DNA of 64,000 bases from a virus, in UHGV virus genome UHGV-1451962. One strand, given 5' to 3'. Shown piece after piece: positions 2,690 to 50,135 of this stretch; the stretch's first letter is position 1; the number at the start of each line of letters is the position of its first letter. The notes below the pieces were generated by a model that saw nothing but the letters and a program-made list of their open reading frames with translations, did not search any database and was not told the DNA's origin. The translations under genes were made by a program, and so were the position numbers.

Positions 2690-2739
2690 TTAGATTAATC
2701 GTCTACTAATAATTTTCTTATATAGTAGAGGTGAAAAAG

Positions 2740-3357
2740 GTGTTATATGGTTATGCAAGAGTTTCTTCCCGCGACCAAAATATAGATAGACAAATAATTG
2801 CATTAAAAGAGGTCGGCGTAGAAGAAGAAAATATCTTCATAGATAAACAATCAGGTAAAGATTTTAATAGACCTTCTTATCAAGAATTATTAGAAACAAT
2901 TAAAACAGGAGATATGGTAATTATAAAATCCATAGATAGATTAGGTCGAAATTATTCAGAAATTTTAGAACAGTGGAGAATTATTACTAAAGTTCTGAAT
3001 GTAGATATTAAAGTTATTGATATGCCGTTACTCGATACCTCCTACGGGGATGGTACATTAAATAACTTTATAGCTGATTTAGTTTTACAAATTCTCTCTT
3101 TTCAGGCAGAACAAGAGAGAATTTGTATTAAACAGCGACAAGCAGAAGGAATAGCTGCTGCAAAACAAAAAGGAGTTAAATTTGGCCGACCCCGCAAACA
3201 GCTTCCTTCTAATTTTGAAGATTTATATTATAGATATTTAAATAATGAACCAGTGGATAGATTATCAAAAGATTGTAAAGGATTATCTAAATCTACTTTG
3301 CGGTTGCGACTACAAGAACGTCATTCTAAAGATAAAGCATTGGGTGTAATTATTTAA
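2740..3357 (+). CDS. small serine recombinase (resolvase/invertase family)
   Basis: YARVSSRDQ catalytic-serine motif at N-terminus, about 205 aa; GTG start at 2740 (or GTG 2731) after AGAGGTG. Confidence 0.8.
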   Translation: MLYGYARVSSRDQNIDRQIIALKEVGVEEENIFIDKQSGKDFNRPSYQELLETIKTGDMVIIKSIDRLGRNYSEILEQWRIITKVLNVDIKVIDMPLLDTSYGDGTLNNFIADLVLQILSFQAEQERICIKQRQAEGIAAAKQKGVKFGRPRKQLPSNFEDLYYRYLNNEPVDRLSKDCKGLSKSTLRLRLQERHSKDKALGVII

Positions 3358-3824: not shown

Positions 3825-3862
3825 GGCTCCCTTAGTTTTTCGCTAAGGGAGCCTTTTTTTTT
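3825..3862 (+). terminator. rho-independent terminator
   Basis: GGCTCCCTTAG...CTAAGGGAGCC stem followed by a T9 run. Confidence 0.65.
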
Positions 3863-3891
3863 GTCAAAATTTTTTCCAAATTTTTTGACAA
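3861..3891. promoter_or_regulatory. inverted repeat TTGTCAAAATTTTTT-CC-AAATTTTTTGACAA overlapping a TTGACA -35-like hexamer
   Basis: Read directly; immediately followed by AATTGGGAAA (3892-3901); upstream of gene at 3973. Confidence 0.3.
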
Positions 3892-3972
3892 AATTGGGAA
3901 ATCGTATGGGAATAAAATTTATATATGTATGGAAGGTAAAGGAAATAAAAAAATTTTTAGAAAGGAAAAATT

Positions 3973-10172: not shown

Positions 10173-10523
10173 TTATACTGTGATTGTATGCTCATTGAAC
10201 TCAAGTATAATATTTTTAGAAAAATAGTCTTGTAAATGTTCCATCTCATTTTCTTTCACAATGATACAATCAGCATTATCAGATGCATGTCCCCAAATAT
10301 AGTTACAATTTTTTCCATGTATAGTATAGTAAGCAGAACTAATATTATCTAATTTAACTAAGTAATTGAAAGCATCACTACTTTCTTTATTAGAATCACT
10401 GCCTTCTTTAGTAAGAGCGTAGCCACCCCTTGCTCTTACTTTACCAACAACAGTACCGCATGCCCTATCTACAACATATGTATTTGAAATGCGAACTCTG
10501 TCTCCATAATAAAACTTAGACAT
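10173..10523 (-). CDS. hypothetical protein
   Basis: Start moved to ATG (MSKFYYG...) after AAAAGGAGAAAA RBS. Confidence 0.45.
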   Translation of the reverse strand: MSKFYYGDRVRISNTYVVDRACGTVVGKVRARGGYALTKEGSDSNKESSDAFNYLVKLDNISSAYYTIHGKNCNYIWGHASDNADCIIVKENEMEHLQDYFSKNIILEFNEHTITV

Positions 10524-10717
10524 ATATTTTCTCCTTTTGCTACTGATTATCAAATATTTTTGTCTTATTTGCCATTTTAGAAATCTATTCTTCTCCAGTA
10601 CAAACTTTTGCCTCAGCAGTTAAGCGCTTTGTGCTCGCATCAACTAAAATTTGCTTAAATCTTTTAATCAAAAAAACATACCACACATTTTCCACATAAA
10701 TGTTTGCCTTATATAGT

Positions 10718-18624: not shown

Positions 18625-18847
18625 TTTTATCCTCCAAAAGGTTTTCTCTAAGAATATCAAAGAAACGTAAACAATCTCTTCTCGCTAAATTCATTCGTGT
18701 TTCAAATTCTTGGCCATTTTTAACTTCATAAATAGCTAACATCATTCTTGCGTATTTATATCTTAAACACAAACTGTCAAAAACATATTCTTTAATTTTC
18801 ATATCTTTTTCTTCAAAAACTTCTTGCAACTTATAAATATCATCCAT
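18611..18847 (-). CDS. hypothetical protein
   Basis: 78-aa ORF with AGGAGAAAAATT RBS. Confidence 0.45.
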   Translation of the reverse strand: MDDIYKLQEVFEEKDMKIKEYVFDSLCLRYKYARMMLAIYEVKNGQEFETRMNLARRDCLRFFDILRENLLEDKNDSN

Positions 18848-18941
18848 TTTAATTTTTCTCCTATTTACTTTAAAAATTACTAAACTCCATTTTAATTCAT
18901 CGTCTCCGCGCCGATGAGCTTCCAGCTAAAACTTTCAAAAA

Positions 18942-33660: not shown

Positions 33661-34002
33661 TCAAATCGGCCCAAAGACGTCCGGTTCATCGGAAGAGGTG
33701 GGCGTTTGTGGCGTCAGATTATTCATCACAGTTTCATATTTTATGCCATTTTTAGTATTCTCACGAGTGGCTTTATTATAATAAAAAGCTTGACTAACTG
33801 CATAAGCAGCCCAAGGTAAACTGGCTTCCGCGGCTAACCAAGGCAAAGAACCAGTAAATCCTTCGTGAATGCAATAAAATGCTAGAATAATATGAGCGAG
33901 AGAATGAACCCATATTAAAGCAGATTCTTGAGCTAAAAGAACTTTTGAAAATTCTTTTTTCTTTTTTCTTTTGTTTCTATTCTTTTTAACGAAGTTTATC
34001 AT
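33661..34002 (-). CDS. putative holin
   Basis: 113 aa, two hydrophobic helices (LIWVHSLAHIILAFYCI, LPWAAYAVSQAFYY); overlaps the end of the endolysin gene. Confidence 0.4.
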   Translation of the reverse strand: MINFVKKNRNKRKKKKEFSKVLLAQESALIWVHSLAHIILAFYCIHEGFTGSLPWLAAEASLPWAAYAVSQAFYYNKATRENTKNGIKYETVMNNLTPQTPTSSDEPDVFGPI

Positions 34003-34783
34003 ATAATCTCTTCATTATAGTGACGCCTTCTAGTCTGGTTAAAAACTTATTAGGCATTAATTTGCCAGTTTCGTCACCTTTAATTAGTCCCATAGAAACT
34101 GCCCAATTTAATTCATCTTTGCCCCAATCAGCATTTTGTTTAGCTAATTGAACTAAATAATTATTCATCATTTCATTAAATTTTTCTTGAGTCATGTCTT
34201 CATCCTCCTCTTGTTTAATTGTAGGTTTATTATTATTATTTGTTTTAGGTTTTTCAATTATAAAATAATATTTTACTTGTTGTTTGAAAAGACTATAATT
34301 ACCTCTAGTGCGTGCGGTTTTTGTGCTGTTAGGGTCATTAATATAAATAGTGTTTCCTTGAATATTCCACACTAAAATGAAATGACCACTACTTGTCCAT
34401 AATCCTTTGCCCATACAAGCTATAACTAAATTACCTTTATCAATTTCAGCTTTTGCTAAATTATGATATTTACTAGAACTATTACCATAAATATTTGCAC
34501 CATTCAGCATATAGGCTGTTAAACCGTATCGTGCAGCAGCAGGTTTAAAATATCCATAATAAGTTCCTTGGTGAGGAGCTTTATAACCATGCGCTAAAGC
34601 CCAGGCACATTCAGTTTTTGGAGTAACTTTTTTATCTGCCCATGTAGCTAAAACCATAGACATTGCGGTGGGACCGCAGCCAGAAGCGCCGATTGTAGTT
34701 GATTCACCTTTTGCTGAATAGCTAATATTTTTCCATCTTGCGTCTGTTTGTAAATAAGATACAGGCTGTGTATTCATATACAT
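33986..34783 (-). CDS. endolysin: papain-like (C39-type) cysteine peptidase with C-terminal SLH-like cell-wall-binding domain
   Basis: Q...GASGCGPTAMSMVLA Cys motif; C-terminal NWAVSMGLIKGD...LMPNKFLTRLEGVTIMKRL resembles SLH repeat. Confidence 0.5.
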   Translation of the reverse strand: MYMNTQPVSYLQTDARWKNISYSAKGESTTIGASGCGPTAMSMVLATWADKKVTPKTECAWALAHGYKAPHQGTYYGYFKPAAARYGLTAYMLNGANIYGNSSSKYHNLAKAEIDKGNLVIACMGKGLWTSSGHFILVWNIQGNTIYINDPNSTKTARTRGNYSLFKQQVKYYFIIEKPKTNNNNKPTIKQEEDEDMTQEKFNEMMNNYLVQLAKQNADWGKDELNWAVSMGLIKGDETGKLMPNKFLTRLEGVTIMKRLYDKLR

Positions 34784-34851: not shown

Positions 34852-35280
34852 TTAAATTAATTCTGCGAGTTCTGCTATTTTAGATCTATGGATATTATTT
34901 AAAGTTACTTCTCCATAAATATCAGAACCTCTAAAAATTTTAGACATTCTTCTCATGCCATTGTTATTACCAGAATAAGCTAATGAGTCAACTTGCGTTT
35001 TAGCATCACCATCAATAATACAAATACAATCTTCACCAATACGTTGAAGAGCTAATTTAATTAAAGTTCTGTCTAAATTTTGTGCTTCTGTTATATAAAT
35101 ACCTGCGTTCATTCCGCTAGTATCATAACCTCTAATATCGCTAAAAGGCAATAAAACTAATTTATCTTCTTCCATCATACGAAGAACACCTTCTTTACCG
35201 CCCAATTTGGCGGAAAGCATATTACCAATTTGTGAGTCAAGTAATTTATCGTCTTTTGTACCTGGGTAAACATTAAACAT
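34852..35280 (-). CDS. phoH: PhoH2-like ATPase, 3' exon (C-terminal part)
   Basis: PhoH C-terminal motifs LPFSDIRGYD, ITEAQNL, IIDGDAKTQVDS; continues the P-loop domain that ends at 36547; exact splice junction not determined. Confidence 0.55.
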   Translation of the reverse strand: MFNVYPGTKDDKLLDSQIGNMLSAKLGGKEGVLRMMEEDKLVLLPFSDIRGYDTSGMNAGIYITEAQNLDRTLIKLALQRIGEDCICIIDGDAKTQVDSLAYSGNNNGMRRMSKIFRGSDIYGEVTLNNIHRSKIAELAELI

Positions 35281-36546
35281 TATAGCTTTCGCTATAAACC
35301 TGACTATATCTTATTTCAAACTATTTTTTAAACTAATATATTTATCATATTTTCTTTTTAAAAATCTTGGATTATTATCATAAAGAGTATTTAAAATATT
35401 TAATACTTGTATTCTACCTCTCCATTGTGTATGCCACGCGGTAGTATAAAAATTTTTGTTTTTTTTATCTGATTGTATTAGAAGGTTTATTATATTTTGA
35501 AAATCTTCAACTTCTGTCTCACAATAAGCTGTATAACTTAATGTTACATCTGTGCTAAAATTTTTACTATATGAAAGACCGCCATCACCATCAAATAAAC
35601 CTAAAGCATAAGCTGATAAATATTCTTTAGGGATTTTTTCATAAGGAATATGTGTTATTTTATAAGTTTTATTTGGCACTATATTATATTTTGCTAAGTC
35701 ATTATAAATTTGTTCATCTACAAATTCAACTGAACAACAAGTGCTATTTGGACGAATATCATAGATAATTTTACTATCTATTTGAATATCATTTTTAAAT
35801 TTTTCAAGAAGTTCTATATCTTGTTCTTGAATTTGTAATCTAATTCGCCCAGTTTTTCGATAATGGTCTACACTTCCATCTGTAAATAAAAATCCTAGCC
35901 AATATGCTTTAATAGGAGAGTCGATAATTGAAAAATAATCACTTTTAATTCTCCTATTAATTTTATTTGTATTTGTAACTTTGATATTTAATTCTTTTAA
36001 CCTTTTCTTCGTTGTTTCAACATCCAAATTACAATATTTAGCAATTTCTTTAAGAAAAGCTCCTTCTTTAATCATTTTTTTAATAGTAATAATTTGTTCA
36101 TCAGATAAATTTTTCTTTTTTCTTCCACCTCTTATTACAACATTATTATCTGTAAGAAGTTTTGTTAAATTACGTCTATTATAAGAAGGATATTTTAAAA
36201 GTAATTTAGTTATTGACTGACCTTCTAAATACTCTTGTACAATTTGTTTTTCCATAAACTATCTCCTTTATTTTAATATTATATATTATTTTTATTAAAG
36301 ATAGTTTTTCTTTGTTTGTCCAAAATTTTTCAGTTTGAAATCCATGCGCTTCGGAATTTTACTTCCTACTCTACTCCCTTACTATAGTTTCGATAGTCGA
36401 TGAGCCTTCCTCTATTCGAGGCTTGGTTGCTGATTGTCCAATCTATATTATTTTTAAACGTTCACGCTTAGATTTATTTCATTCTTACGTTGTAGTTAAT
36501 ATAGCTCTAAGGATGTTCCAGCAGTTCACATGGTTTTACTTGAGCC
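35281..36546 (-). mobile_element. group I intron (ORF-containing) interrupting PhoH2-like gene
   Basis: About 1.27 kb separates the two PhoH halves; 290-nt GC-elevated non-coding segment (36256-36546) with stem-loops, plus a free-standing LAGLIDADG ORF; GNRA hairpin TATAGC-GAAA-GCTATA just before exon 2. Confidence 0.55.
35311..36255 (-). CDS. LAGLIDADG homing endonuclease (intron-encoded)
   Basis: Two LAGLIDADG motifs (AYWLGFLFTDGS, AYALGLFDGDGG); own RBS AAGGAGA; 314 aa. Confidence 0.8.
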   Translation of the reverse strand: MEKQIVQEYLEGQSITKLLLKYPSYNRRNLTKLLTDNNVVIRGGRKKKNLSDEQIITIKKMIKEGAFLKEIAKYCNLDVETTKKRLKELNIKVTNTNKINRRIKSDYFSIIDSPIKAYWLGFLFTDGSVDHYRKTGRIRLQIQEQDIELLEKFKNDIQIDSKIIYDIRPNSTCCSVEFVDEQIYNDLAKYNIVPNKTYKITHIPYEKIPKEYLSAYALGLFDGDGGLSYSKNFSTDVTLSYTAYCETEVEDFQNIINLLIQSDKKNKNFYTTAWHTQWRGRIQVLNILNTLYDNNPRFLKRKYDKYISLKNSLK

Positions 36547-37416
36547 TTACCCTATTTTAATTAACCCAAGTCTTGCGGAATTAATAGTTGCCACTGTATT
36601 ACAAAAGATTATAATTTTATCTATTCTATTTTTTTCTAACATATACATTAAAAAAGCTAGAGAAATGTAAGATTTTCCTACTCCTGCTGGGCCTTGTAAC
36701 AAAGTAATTTTATTATTAGCTAAACTATCAAAAGCACATTTTTGATATATGTCTCCTTGATATGGTTGTACTTTTCCAAACCAGGTAGAATCAAAAGTAG
36801 GAAATTTTAAGTAACGATAAGTTTCTCCTGACCAAACCCGCACATCTATAAGTTCATCAAAATTATCAGGATTTTTTAAAAGTAGATATTCTCCTTTTTT
36901 AAGATTAAAATGATTATAGTTAGGATTTTCATAAAATTTAGAAATTAATTCTTCACTAGCAGTAATTTCTGCAATTCCACTATAAGTATCTAAATCTTCC
37001 TCAATAGAAGAAACATTTTCTTTGGGAAACAAACATAAAGCAATATGTTTTAAACTTAAATCATTAGTTATAAATTCTAAACATTTATTTGTTTCAAACT
37101 CATTCCAAGCATCAGACAAAATTCTAGCATCATCATTAATATCAAAATTCATTTTATCTAAAATGTATTCATAATTTATTTGATGAATTTTAACAGAATA
37201 ATTATTTGGATATTTTTCAAATAAATGAAGCAAAAGTCTTGCGGAATATTTTATATCAGAATCTTTATTTGCCGCAGTTTTAATTCTTTCTAATTCTTTT
37301 AAAGTAATAGAAGAAATGATAAATTTCTCATCATCTTCAAAAGCTGATTCTCCGGCTAATAAAAGACTACAAGTATCGTAGAATTTAATAATAATTTCCA
37401 CTCTCCTATTGTTCAA
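36547..37416 (-). CDS. phoH: PhoH2-like protein, 5' exon (PIN-like N-terminal domain plus Walker A of PhoH domain)
   Basis: N-terminal PIN-like region (YDTCSLLL); C-terminal LLQGPAGVGKSYISLAF P-loop; ORF ends ~6 codons past the point where PhoH homology stops. Confidence 0.55.
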   Translation of the reverse strand: MNNRRVEIIIKFYDTCSLLLAGESAFEDDEKFIISSITLKELERIKTAANKDSDIKYSARLLLHLFEKYPNNYSVKIHQINYEYILDKMNFDINDDARILSDAWNEFETNKCLEFITNDLSLKHIALCLFPKENVSSIEEDLDTYSGIAEITASEELISKFYENPNYNHFNLKKGEYLLLKNPDNFDELIDVRVWSGETYRYLKFPTFDSTWFGKVQPYQGDIYQKCAFDSLANNKITLLQGPAGVGKSYISLAFLMYMLEKNRIDKIIIFCNTVATINSARLGLIKIG

Positions 37417-37907: not shown

Positions 37908-37989
37908 TAAAATTCTCCTATCTTATTTTATATTATAATTATATCATAAATTCTGAGAAAAATAAAATTCTTGGTATTTGCGTAAAAAA

Positions 37990-38075
37990 TTGCTAGAGGC
38001 GCGAAAATTCGGCGACACGGGCTGCCACGAGTATGCACGAAGACCCTAGAGCAAAAGTACTCTAGGGTCTTTAAT
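37990..38075. other. GC-rich non-coding island with terminal hairpin (candidate small RNA or protein-binding element)
   Basis: GCTAGAGGCGCGAAAATTCGGCGACACGGGCTGCCACGAGTATGCACG then hairpin AGACCCTAGAG...CTCTAGGGTCT; GC far above local background. Confidence 0.3.
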
Positions 38076-48019: not shown

Positions 48020-49543
48020 TTACTTAATTACTTCATATCTTTTGCTATTCAGCTTTTCCAATACCAAGTCAAGACCAGTCTTGCCAGTCATTAACATTTC
48101 ATAAGTTACCGCAGAGTAACCAGAAATAAAAGTAATACCATCTTTCATCTTCATGGGAATATTATCATTTCGAGCATCAACATTCCAAAAAATCAAGTGC
48201 GGAGTAGTGTAACCATGAGAGTTCCAAACCTGCATAATCTTTTCCATTTCAGACTTGTATTCATCCCTATTATAGTAGCCAGTGCAATAATCAAATTCCA
48301 TATCACTAATGATTACAATGTTTTTAGGCATTTCTTCATTAGGAATATTATATTTAATAGCATTACTTAATAGCAAATCAAAAATACTTTGAATATTAGT
48401 GTTCTCACAGAGATTCTTTTGATAAATTCGACGTACTTTATCAACAAAATCAATACCTTCAATAGGCACCAATCTTGCAGTCCGAGAAAAAGTAATATAA
48501 TGTCCATACCAGGGAGAATTGGGATTACACTTCTCAGCACAATACATACCAAGAGAAATAGCTACATCAATAGGCGCGATAGTTTTCTCACTACCATAAA
48601 AACCACACATAGAACTAGAAGTATCAACGACAGCAACACCGTCAAAAACAGCATTATTAAAATAATCCTTTAGATTATCCCAATACTTATTGAGTGCAGC
48701 TCTCTCCACATCAGTTCCATTAAAATTTCCTCTATAATAAGGAAATTTAGAAACAACAGCATAAACTACATCCGCGGGATTCAAAGTATCAGCATTGACC
48801 TTAGTATTAGAATCCTTTACAAACTCTTCATAAGTTACCTTATTAGACTTTTCTCTTTCAATATCGTGCTTTGCAAAAGCATTGCGATACTTTAGACCTG
48901 CCTTAGAAGGAATCTTATCAAATTCAATTTCATCCCAACGGTTTTCACTCATCAGTCTTTCCAAAACTCTAATTCTTTCACGAAGAATAGAGAGAGTTTT
49001 GCGATACTGCTTAGGAGACATATTAAAAGCCATTCTAGTTTTAGTTCCAAGCATACGAGATTCCACAGAAGAAGTGTTCTCAGACTTCAACCACTTAGCC
49101 AAAAGAGAGGGAGTTTTACATTGAACATCAAGAGCAAGTTGATGATACATAGTCTTAAAAGCATCTGCCTCAAGTGGAGTATCAACAAAAGCATACAAAT
49201 CATCCCAGCGACCGTACTCAGGAACATACTTCAGATTTCTGCGCATTTCCTCAGTATGGTTAATGGCCAACCAAGAAGTTACAACCTTAAAAAATCTGCG
49301 TTCTCCCTGTCCACCGCGTACGTCTCGCAAATAAAAGAGACACTTCAAAGCATAAGAAATATCTTCTTCAAAAGCCTTCTTAAAAAGAAAAATACAATCA
49401 TCATCTGAGCGATTTCGATAAGCGCCACCAAGAGCAAACAAATCCATAATTCCATTCATAGTAGAATTATAAGTCAAACCACCATTCTCAGTGATAGAAT
49501 GAGTATTCTTTTCCTTCAAAATATTAAGCATCTTATTTTCCAT
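48020..49543 (-). CDS. TROVE/DUF2828-like protein with C-terminal vWA (MIDAS DxSxS) domain; Ro60-like architecture
   Basis: 507 aa; N-terminal TENGGLTYNSTMNGIMDLFALGG; VAVVDTSSSM MIDAS-like motif around residue 305; AAAAGGAGAAAG RBS; family call is from recalled patterns only. Confidence 0.4.
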   Translation of the reverse strand: MENKMLNILKEKNTHSITENGGLTYNSTMNGIMDLFALGGAYRNRSDDDCIFLFKKAFEEDISYALKCLFYLRDVRGGQGERRFFKVVTSWLAINHTEEMRRNLKYVPEYGRWDDLYAFVDTPLEADAFKTMYHQLALDVQCKTPSLLAKWLKSENTSSVESRMLGTKTRMAFNMSPKQYRKTLSILRERIRVLERLMSENRWDEIEFDKIPSKAGLKYRNAFAKHDIEREKSNKVTYEEFVKDSNTKVNADTLNPADVVYAVVSKFPYYRGNFNGTDVERAALNKYWDNLKDYFNNAVFDGVAVVDTSSSMCGFYGSEKTIAPIDVAISLGMYCAEKCNPNSPWYGHYITFSRTARLVPIEGIDFVDKVRRIYQKNLCENTNIQSIFDLLLSNAIKYNIPNEEMPKNIVIISDMEFDYCTGYYNRDEYKSEMEKIMQVWNSHGYTTPHLIFWNVDARNDNIPMKMKDGITFISGYSAVTYEMLMTGKTGLDLVLEKLNSKRYEVIK

Positions 49544-49682: not shown

Positions 49683-50059
49683 AAATAAGGTTTTCCCTTG
49701 TAAGGAGGATAACCTAAAACCCAAGCTAGCTTTAGTCCTTTTTTAATCAGAGGTTGACCATTCTCATTAGCATTTCTCAGAAGCCTTGATTTTCTACTTC
49801 TCGTAGTAGAAGGAGTGGAGATGAGTAATGCTCCGCCGTCTCTCCTATATAACACCTTGCATTTTAATGACGCAAAGAAACATTTTACTATGCGGCTATC
49901 AACCTGTTTACCCATAGCTAACGACTTAGGTCGCCCTTATGTCTGGTCACGCAGTATCGTCGCTTCAACAGTTGCCAGACTAATTCTCCCGATACCCGGA
50001 TACCCAGTTCAGCATTATCTGGGGTACTCATTTATTTTACGTCTGTATGATAAGACTAA
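49683..50059 (-). ncRNA. candidate structured non-coding RNA (unassigned 377-nt GC-elevated spacer in tRNA island)
   Basis: No tRNA fold found; GC clearly above flanks; only low-plausibility ORFs that overlap tRNAs; next to TROVE/vWA gene. Confidence 0.25.
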
Positions 50060-50135
50060 TGGTGGCTCGCCTGGGATTTGAACCCAGCACATCTTGCTTA
50101 AAAGGCAAGTGTTCTACCTAATGAACTAGCGAACC
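50060..50135 (-). tRNA. tRNA-Lys (anticodon TTT)
   Basis: Acceptor GGTTCGC/GCGAGCC, anticodon loop CTTTTAA, T-arm CTGGG-TTCAAAT-CCCAG, encoded CCA. Confidence 0.85.

Follow-up and report, generated by a model that had tools for sequence, protein, structure and literature searches.

We have identified a short intergenic element that is repeated in the genome of a 137-kb uncultured gut phage. The element is real, strand-specific and family-wide, and joins a GC-rich core to an AT-rich box holding a -10-like hexamer and a conserved anchor that ends in a T-run. We tentatively read it as a promoter without a -35 sequence that would depend on a phage-encoded factor. If it marks transcription units that are not read by sigma-A, its signature (GC box, nARAAT, TTAGnAATTTTT) would allow operons and expression classes to be annotated straight from metagenomic contigs. 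Should it turn out to be a leader RNA or termination signal instead, it would still be a conserved regulatory punctuation mark of the family.

The phage (~137 kb) has been assembled repeatedly from human gut metagenomes (dozens of assemblies), and related phages are frequent in viromes of gut and rumen. The window, by which we mean the whole stretch analysed (64,000 nucleotides of UHGV virus genome UHGV-1451962), has a GC content of 30%, and its minus strand carries all genes from 6.9 to 64 kb. The replication module is ordered DnaB, primase, RecJ-like protein, Dda-like helicase and PolIII alpha. The helicase is 42-43% identical to those of ~140-kb Enterococcus phages, and PolIII alpha is 38-39% identical to that of SPbeta. 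Just upstream of window position 1 (L110 4541-9709) are genes for an RVT_1 reverse transcriptase (418 aa), a DUF4376 protein and a 587-aa Big_3 protein, a cassette that looks like a diversity-generating retroelement beside tail-fibre-like genes. A DNA invertase of the serine recombinase type (window 2731-3357, plus strand; PHROG 125, E 7.5e-51) is encoded among virion and holin genes. Perfect or near-perfect palindromes (TTCCCAAAATTTTTGGGAA / TTGGGAAAAGGATAT-ATATCCTTTTCCCAA) lie near it at 252-286, 2669-2687 and ~3861-3901, and invertase and palindromes may together form an invertible segment controlling a virion or host-range gene. The PhoH-like gene (window 34852-37416, minus strand) is divided into parts at 36547-37416 and 34852-35280 by a LAGLIDADG homing-endonuclease ORF (35311-36255), which suggests an intron or intein-type insertion. 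The host may be a Bacillota species with an S-layer, as hinted at by a C39-like peptidase with a C-terminal S-layer-homology (SLH) domain (window 33986-34783, minus strand). There are 17 tRNA genes in the window, including tRNA-Ile(TAT) and one tRNA with an 8-nt anticodon loop ('tgaa' by ARAGORN).

Copies of the element and their genomic setting

Copy 1 (minus strand 18913..18872) reads CGGCGCGGAGACG-ATGA-ATTAAAATGGAGTTTAGTAATTTTT, and copy 2 (minus strand 58037..57995) reads CGGCGCGGACACG-GGCAA-ATTAAAATGGAGTTTAGTAATTTTT (Table 1). Within these blocks of ~43 nt, the GC cores are alike at 12 of 13 positions, the linkers are 4-5 nt long, and the 25-nt boxes are identical throughout (25/25); the flanks beyond the blocks have no mutual similarity. 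The box has exactly two matches in the window with up to three mismatches, and the core exactly two with up to two mismatches, compared with an expectation of 0.00 for each in dinucleotide shuffles. This confirms the original prediction that a GC core and an AT-rich box are shared between two distant sites. The rarity of GC-rich islands that had been claimed along with it was borne out for intergenic DNA: 27 islands with at least 12 of 16 GC occur in the window, the majority of them within coding sequence or tRNA genes.

Table 1 Positions of the element and adjoining features in the window
Feature	Position	Strand	Source or remark
Copy 1 GC core CGGCGCGGAGACG	18901..18913	-	near-invariant in 10 strain contigs, one CGG>CAG variant
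Copy 1 25-nt box ATTAAAATGGAGTTTAGTAATTTTT	18872..18896	-	repeat search
Copy 1 -10-like TAAAAT	18889-18894	-	inside 25-nt box
Copy 1 anchor TTAGTAATTTTT	18872-18883	-	inside 25-nt box
Upstream block TTTGAAAGTTTTAGCT	18924..18939	-	common to copies 1 and 3
TG-extended -10 TGATATAAT of canonical sigma-70-type promoter after fourth member	37938..37946	-	also in L038, L079, L052
Looser fourth member: 64%-GC segment, then CTAGCAATTTTTT	37985..38036	-	gene-strand layout
Bidirectional intrinsic terminator directly upstream (gene strand) of fourth member	38039..38075	.	13-14 bp stem, z -3.4 and -4.3
Leader, copy 2 to ATG of 89-aa gene	57899..57994	-	alignment with relatives; L190-193
Copy 2 25-nt box ATTAAAATGGAGTTTAGTAATTTTT	57995..58019	-	repeat search
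Copy 2 anchor TTAGTAATTTTT	57995-58006	-	inside 25-nt box
Copy 2 -10-like TAAAAT	58012-58017	-	inside 25-nt box
Copy 2 GC core CGGCGCGGACACG	58025..58037	-	repeat search; polymorphic among strains
Intrinsic terminator (hairpin + T-run) after tRNA-Gln, directly upstream of copy 2	58053..58083	-	sequence
8-nt-loop tRNA and tRNA-Ile(TAT)	58844-58919 and 60176-60251	-	ARAGORN

Copy 1 is situated between the stop codon of the RecJ-like gene (18942) and a 78-aa gene that precedes the Dda-like helicase. An AGGAG ribosome-binding site starts 9 nt past its box, and the ATG at 18847 follows 24 nt downstream of the copy. The block upstream of copy 1 is also found after the RecJ stop codon of the relatives L021, L023 and L027, as TTTGAAAG. 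Downstream of copy 2, after 96 nt, comes the ATG (57898) of an 89-aa gene, the first of a tail-like run that extends down to 53.7 kb. The terminator ahead of copy 2 is kept in strains, and relatives have a different hairpin there; within the leader that follows the copy, TTTTTTTCTTGGTCAAAG and TAGAAGGGATAAA are conserved across genera. Three tandem ~40-nt repeats of TTAATAAACCTTATAGAAATATATTTACTATA (family D13) occur directly upstream of tRNA-Gln, at window 58225-58337 in plus-strand coordinates.

There are two further members, a divergent copy 3 beyond the end of the window and a looser member at 38 kb. Copy 3 (L112 9051-9093, equivalent to window ~64291-64333) is on the same strand, ~330 nt past the window end, and reads CGGGGCGGAGACG-TGCGA-ATAAAAATGGCTTTAACAAATTTTT, with 12 of 13 core positions and 19 of 25 box positions retained. 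It comes after a terminator with an 11-bp stem; as at copy 1, AGGAG is found 9 nt further on, followed by the ATG of a 258-aa gene. At 38 kb, the original prediction had placed a third GC core on the plus strand (38010-38025). That core is real, since GACACGGGC at 38014-38022 (plus strand) is an exact 9-mer also present in copy 2, but the strand was wrong and the site is better read on the minus strand. There, TAGCAATTTTT at 37985-37995 follows a 64%-GC segment in the layout of the other copies with the core inverted, and the order along the gene strand is terminator, 64%-GC segment, CTAGCAATTTTTT and sigma-70 promoter. This site has no -10-like pentamer. Of the four TAGNAATTTTT sites in the window, three lie in intergenic DNA on the gene strand, behind a stretch with at least 58% GC (P about 1e-4, on the basis that even 50% GC is reached by only 3.1% of 33-nt windows). 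Because of its layout, its strand and these GC statistics, the 38-kb site is counted as a putative looser member of the family with an inverted core. All four members are intergenic and on the gene strand, intrinsic terminators precede three of the four (copies 2 and 3 and the 38-kb member), and copies 1 and 3 abut a ribosome-binding site.

Neither the window nor 20 kb of flanks contained another strong copy according to a profile made from the clear instances, and scans of IMG/VR for the box and the core gave no extra copies. A degenerate pattern scan recovered only the relatives L114 and L115 plus chance matches, and a metagenome scan returned two small contigs of the same phage along with 51 chance matches. 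A match to a host genome of the attP kind was discarded as a candidate, a scan of bacterial genome representatives having given two chance matches only. Also rejected was a 375-nt, GC-richer non-coding gap (window 49683-50060, minus strand) carrying a core-like GAGACGGCGGAGC, because it lacks the anchor. This gap lies between tRNA-Leu(CAA) and tRNA-Lys and adjoins the gene for a Ro-like RNA-binding protein (48020-49543); it has no Rfam match at E up to 1, and its fold is not significant (z -0.41).

Variation among strains and conservation in relatives

Both copies keep their position in 20+ strain contigs. Copy 1 is almost invariant among strains. At the copy 2 locus, most of the polymorphism of a 250-nt region falls in three parts of the element, namely its GC core, its linker and the 5' half of its box: variants include GGA>GGG in the core, GGGC>GAGC in the linker, and ATT>ATC and ATGG>ATAG/ATAA/ATGA in the 5' half of the box. 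The 3' half of the box is invariant, as is GTTTAGTAATTTTTTTCTTGGTCAAAG at copy 2 in all strain contigs compared. Copy 3 also shows ATGG>ATAG. Contig L189 (protein 87% identical) ends inside the element and has the copy-1 linker at the copy-2 locus, so the copies exchange sequence, and their perfect 25-nt identity does not reflect base-by-base constraint. In contigs L190-193, the T-run block is kept and there is no GC segment. Homing-endonuclease content also varies between the strain variants. The helicase gene of one strain has a LAGLIDADG insertion (L006 3224-5467) and encodes 747 aa instead of 389 aa, and GIY-YIG and PDDEXK_5 genes are gained or lost among strains in the tRNA region upstream of copy 2 (L012-L020).

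The relatives comprised about 90 IMG/VR contigs from 100-200-kb phages with helicases 44-55% identical to that of this phage and a replication module of the SPbeta/Enterococcus-phage type. At the same two genomic positions they have a family layout consisting of a GC-rich segment, N6-7, nA(A/G)AAT, N3-6 and TTAGnAA(A)TTTTT. In the RecJ-helicase interval, the gene strand of many relatives has a GC-rich segment that leads through an A-run to TTAGnAA(A)TTTTT, and weak profile matches cluster in this interval on that strand. The sequence of L084 at this position is TGGAGCGGACACG-ACCAA-AATAAAAAATTGTTTAGGAAATTTTT-GAGG..ATG, and L021-27 and L035 have ~40 GC-rich nt followed by ATTAAAAAAT, CC, TTTAGGAAATTTT, GGAGG and ATG. 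The Shine-Dalgarno sequence comes immediately after the T-run in all of these contigs (L021-27, L035 and L084), so that any transcription start would have to be at or upstream of the anchor. At the tail-operon position, the order in relatives is tRNA-Gln, terminator, GC-rich segment, CCATTAGGAATTTTTTTGGCCAAAAG, conserved leader and a homolog of the 89-aa gene; their GC sequence here, CTCGCTGGCTCCGCAAAGCNCCGAG, is unlike that of this phage. Contigs L178 (tail-operon locus) and L052 (helicase locus) belong to one genome, which has a counterpart of the element at both loci.

In the relatives, 13 occurrences of the anchor TTAGnAA(A)TTTTT were counted on the gene strand, as against 0 on the opposite strand. 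The sequence of the GC core is not conserved between genera. In L038, L079 and L052, a normal sigma-70 promoter is found within ~10-40 nt downstream of the element. Downstream of RecJ, L081, L043 and Enterococcus phage VRE9_3 have a GC core, then a canonical terminator and a sigma-70 promoter, and the element itself is absent from VRE9_3.

Promoter-like features and competing readings

Of 18 distinct instances, 16 have a pentamer A[AG]AAT located 3-7 nt upstream of the anchor, representing about 6 of 8 independent lineages, as compared with background frequencies of 5.8% and 4.0% at T[TA]A[GA] sites; this count covers few lineages, and A-rich pentamers are common in AT-rich DNA. The pentamer takes the form TAAAAT in copies 1 and 2 (5/6 vs TATAAT), AAAAAT in copy 3 and TAGAAT or CAGAAT in relatives. 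It thus resembles a sigma-70/sigma-A -10 hexamer (TATAAT-like, with A at -11 and T at -7). The hexamers at 17-nt spacing, TCATCG in copy 1 and GGCCGG in copy 2, do not resemble a -35, and consensus promoter scans reported no promoter at the elements. There is a TTGAAA sequence upstream of copies 1 and 3, 38-39 nt away from the -10-like hexamer. The interval between terminator and gene at copies 2 and 3 contains no sigma-70-type promoter, and the element is the sole conserved feature there.

Canonical promoters of the form TTGAAA-N17-TGATATAAT number about 20 in the window and correspond to the repeat families D1-D9. None of them is located in 53.7-58.0 kb, and none adjoins copies 1 or 2. The D1-D9 promoters (about 20 sites at 17.4-63.5 kb, minus strand) belong to the early and middle region and have conserved flanks of up to ~60 nt; by analogy with the SPBRE repeat of SPbeta, discussed below, this conservation beyond the hexamers may include an operator. 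The consensus sequences of sigma-H, B, D, ECF and 54 and of SPO1 gp28/gp34, compared by eye, were rejected as none fits all copies.

What has to be explained, then, is a repeat with its strand bias and intergenic position, a -10-like pentamer, conservation in relatives, and the absence of RNA structure. Our favored reading, advanced tentatively, is a factor-dependent promoter without a -35, in which TAAAAT would serve as the -10, transcription would start near TTAG, and the GC box would occupy about -19 to -32. From the sequence we infer promoter activity, start site, factor dependence and timing as follows. The element would be a DNA-level transcription signal that the unaided host polymerase cannot use, and a phage-encoded activator, sigma-like protein or modified polymerase would be required. 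The GC-rich box CGGSGCGGASACG, in the spacer/-35 position (about -19 to -32), would be the recognition site of this factor, followed by the -10-like hexamer TAAAAT (nA[A/G]AAT across the family). Transcription would begin about 7 nt downstream of this hexamer at the conserved TTAGnAA, so that TTAGnAATTTTT would constitute the start and initial transcribed region. The transcript would open with the T-run as a short U-rich leader; the ribosome-binding site would come immediately after it at copies 1 and 3, and a conserved leader of ~85 nt at copy 2. At least three operons would be turned on in this way, namely that of the 78-aa gene and the Dda-like helicase, the tail-fibre-like operon, and the operon encoding proteins of 258, 241 and 434 aa. 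The operons downstream of members are not all late, as they include the helicase operon, the tail operon and an operon without assigned function. A GC box that is alike within the genome and divergent between genera is to be expected if the box and its reader protein co-evolve. Recognition as DNA is favored because there is no RNA fold, negligible covariation and no Rfam family.

Several observations argue against a promoter. The sequence of the GC box changes from genus to genus, and at copy 2 the box varies more among strains than the flanking DNA does. L190-193 have the T-run block and no GC segment, and the 38-kb member has an inverted core and no pentamer. The element is also absent from the plus-strand structural and lysis genes at 0.4-6.9 kb. 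In L038, L079 and L052, where a sigma-70 promoter lies just behind the element, a second promoter would not be strictly needed. The original prediction had proposed a distinct promoter class, for example phage-sigma-dependent, or a regulator site. It gains from the intergenic, gene-strand placement, from the location of three of four members just behind intrinsic terminators, from the element being the sole conserved feature between terminator and gene at copies 2 and 3, from the pentamer in 16/18 instances and from the same positions being used across genera, but its phage sigma was not encountered: among about 60 proteins, covering ~84 of 137 kb, Pfam and PHROG searches revealed no sigma factor, RNA polymerase, MotA/AsiA-like protein or other regulator.

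A different view is that the element acts in RNA, within the 5' leader of the downstream genes, and that the real promoter is further upstream. It could then be where a translational repressor or a stabiliser of the phage binds, or it could be a NusG-type pause site, with a T-rich non-template strand, by which transcription is coupled to translation. We consider this doubtful, although the element lies directly against the ribosome-binding site in copies 1 and 3, L084 and L021-27, and the copy-2 leader is conserved across genera. Copy 1 would moreover be carried on read-through transcripts, as it follows the RecJ-like gene without an intervening terminator, and all 5 sequences of the L021-35 clade retain a predicted pairing between CCUUUAGG and the Shine-Dalgarno GGAGG. 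Yet the folds of the element are no more stable than those of shuffled sequences (z -1.1 to +0.7), and alifold of the L021-35 clade gives three compensatory pairs with a negligible covariation term of only -0.28 kcal/mol. Rfam has no match at the element, returning only tRNAs at the gathering threshold and noise in permissive scans of three regions with E up to 10. Copies 2 and 3 have a strong terminator 20-65 nt upstream with no recognisable promoter in between; in L038, L079, L052 and the 38-kb member, the element is upstream of a sigma-70 promoter and therefore outside the transcript of that promoter. Furthermore, the Shine-Dalgarno-like GGAG motifs within the element are not conserved. Two narrower candidates were rejected separately. 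A structured RNA or DNA hairpin fails in that the CATCG...CGATG stem of copy 1 is lost in copies 2 and 3, with z about 0. A mini-ORF or Shine-Dalgarno reading of ATGGAG is broken by the strain variants ATAG/ATAA/ATGA and by ATGGCT in copy 3, and the mini-ORF also fails because a 1-nt indel in the linker puts the copies in different reading frames.

That the element is instead a termination or insulation signal closing the upstream operons appears unlikely. As a back-up or factor-dependent terminator, its GC-rich segment and T-run would act on read-through or on a phage-modified polymerase. Such a role would suit the layout of GC-rich DNA followed by T5-T7, and the location of three of four members after intrinsic terminators and of the other after the RecJ-like stop codon. 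It would also suit L081, L043 and VRE9_3, where the post-RecJ GC core runs into a canonical terminator and a sigma-70 promoter, and L038, L079 and L052, where the element is directly ahead of a sigma-70 promoter. However, an intrinsic terminator has a hairpin directly before its T-run, and the element has none: its GC core and T-run are 20-25 AT-rich nt apart, and the fold has a z of about 0. Terminator scans place terminators next to the element and none inside it. A terminator would in addition leave the 78-aa/helicase, tail and 258-aa operons promoterless and the -10-like pentamer unexplained. It is very improbable that the copies are recombination-prone repeats or relics of mobile elements with no regulatory role, such as sites of a phage serine recombinase or footprints of the strain-variable homing endonucleases. 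The 25/25 identity of copies 1 and 2 vs their unrelated flanks would fit such an origin, as would the copy-1 linker at the copy-2 locus of L189 with the contig break inside the element, the DNA invertase encoded at 2731-3357, and the gain and loss of homing endonuclease genes near copy 2. Against this, the copies lack dyad symmetry and are repeated in direct orientation at distances of 20-39 kb, and the invertase has its own palindromic sites of type TTCCCAAAATTTTTGGGAA. There are no target-site duplications and no associated ORF, synteny is constant in 20+ strain contigs, and position, strand and layout are kept across genera whose sequence has diverged. A serine-invertase crossover site (hix/gix/cix type, an imperfect ~26-bp dyad present in inverted orientation on either side of the invertible segment) was rejected on account of the direct orientation and the missing dyad.

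Comparison with known phage transcription systems

The middle promoters of T4 consist of a MotA box and a sigma-70 -10 and operate through sigma appropriation by AsiA and MotA; the MotA box, (a/t)(a/t)(a/t)TGCTTtA, is centred at -30. Similar to these promoters, the element has a good -10-like hexamer without a -35 and a phage-specific box in the -35/spacer region, and it would serve a subset of operons that includes replication genes, often past early terminators or in tandem with ordinary promoters. In contrast to T4, the -19 to -32 box of this phage is the GC-rich CGGSGCGGASACG, which does not match the MotA box, the start region TTAGnAATTTTT is conserved here and not in T4 middle promoters, and the host would be of Gram-positive type. 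The late promoter A3 of phi29 also has no -35 and is activated by protein p4 through upstream A-tract or inverted-repeat sites, and at lambda pRE the cII sites (TTGC-N6-TTGC) flank the -35. The likeness in both cases is a dependence on a phage activator for want of a usable -35; the activator sites are different, and no homologous activators were found in the ~84 kb searched.

SPbeta is among the closest cultured relatives by replication genes, with PolIII alpha 38-39% identical, and offers two comparisons. SPBRE is a short repeat in SPbeta that is bound by the phage-encoded MrpR/YopR repressor and acts as an operator for the control of lysogeny (PMC10516654). It resembles the element as a short repeat in intergenic promoter regions of several operons in a large Bacillota phage. 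It differs in that the SPbeta motif derived from six target regions is the AT-rich AAAAAATATGTATATAA, which overlaps sigma-A -10 regions, and in that the part of this phage examined contains no lysogeny module. An SPBRE/MrpR operator (15-bp motif) was rejected as a candidate, since the derived AAAAAATATGTATATAA has no similarity to the element.

The second comparison is with the late promoter P_YonO, which has no published consensus and serves the single-chain RNA polymerase YonO (Forrest et al. 2017, PMC5467207). This phage enzyme transcribes the late structural genes of SPbeta from a signal that is not recognized by sigma-A, and its start site lies in the yonN-yonK gap together with an 'unannotated non-coding RNA' (PMC5467207). 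The gap is 1.7 kb of unannotated sequence (L109 9153-10834), and the region of the start site (L109 about 10360-10550) has no clear similarity to the element. SPbeta has one such promoter, unlike this phage, which has at least 3-4 elements that are not found only before late genes. A tblastn search with SPbeta YonO, which is of low sensitivity, gave no match in the window, 20 kb of its flanks or Enterococcus phage VRE9_3. A link to YonO is attractive but without support from the searches run. We consider it quite unlikely that the element is the promoter of an unrecognised phage-encoded transcription system of a widespread family of 100-200-kb gut and rumen Bacillota phages, based on a highly divergent YonO-like polymerase or on sigma appropriation of the MotA/AsiA kind. 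In such a system, the GC box of each genus would evolve together with the protein that reads it, and TTAGnAATTTTT would be a conserved region of initiation. The element would supply 45-60 bp of DNA as a concrete bait for the phage factor that reads it, and its value would rise if it led to a transcription factor or polymerase of an uncultured phage family. It would be a candidate for the type of promoter behind phage-specific transcription in SPbeta-like phages.
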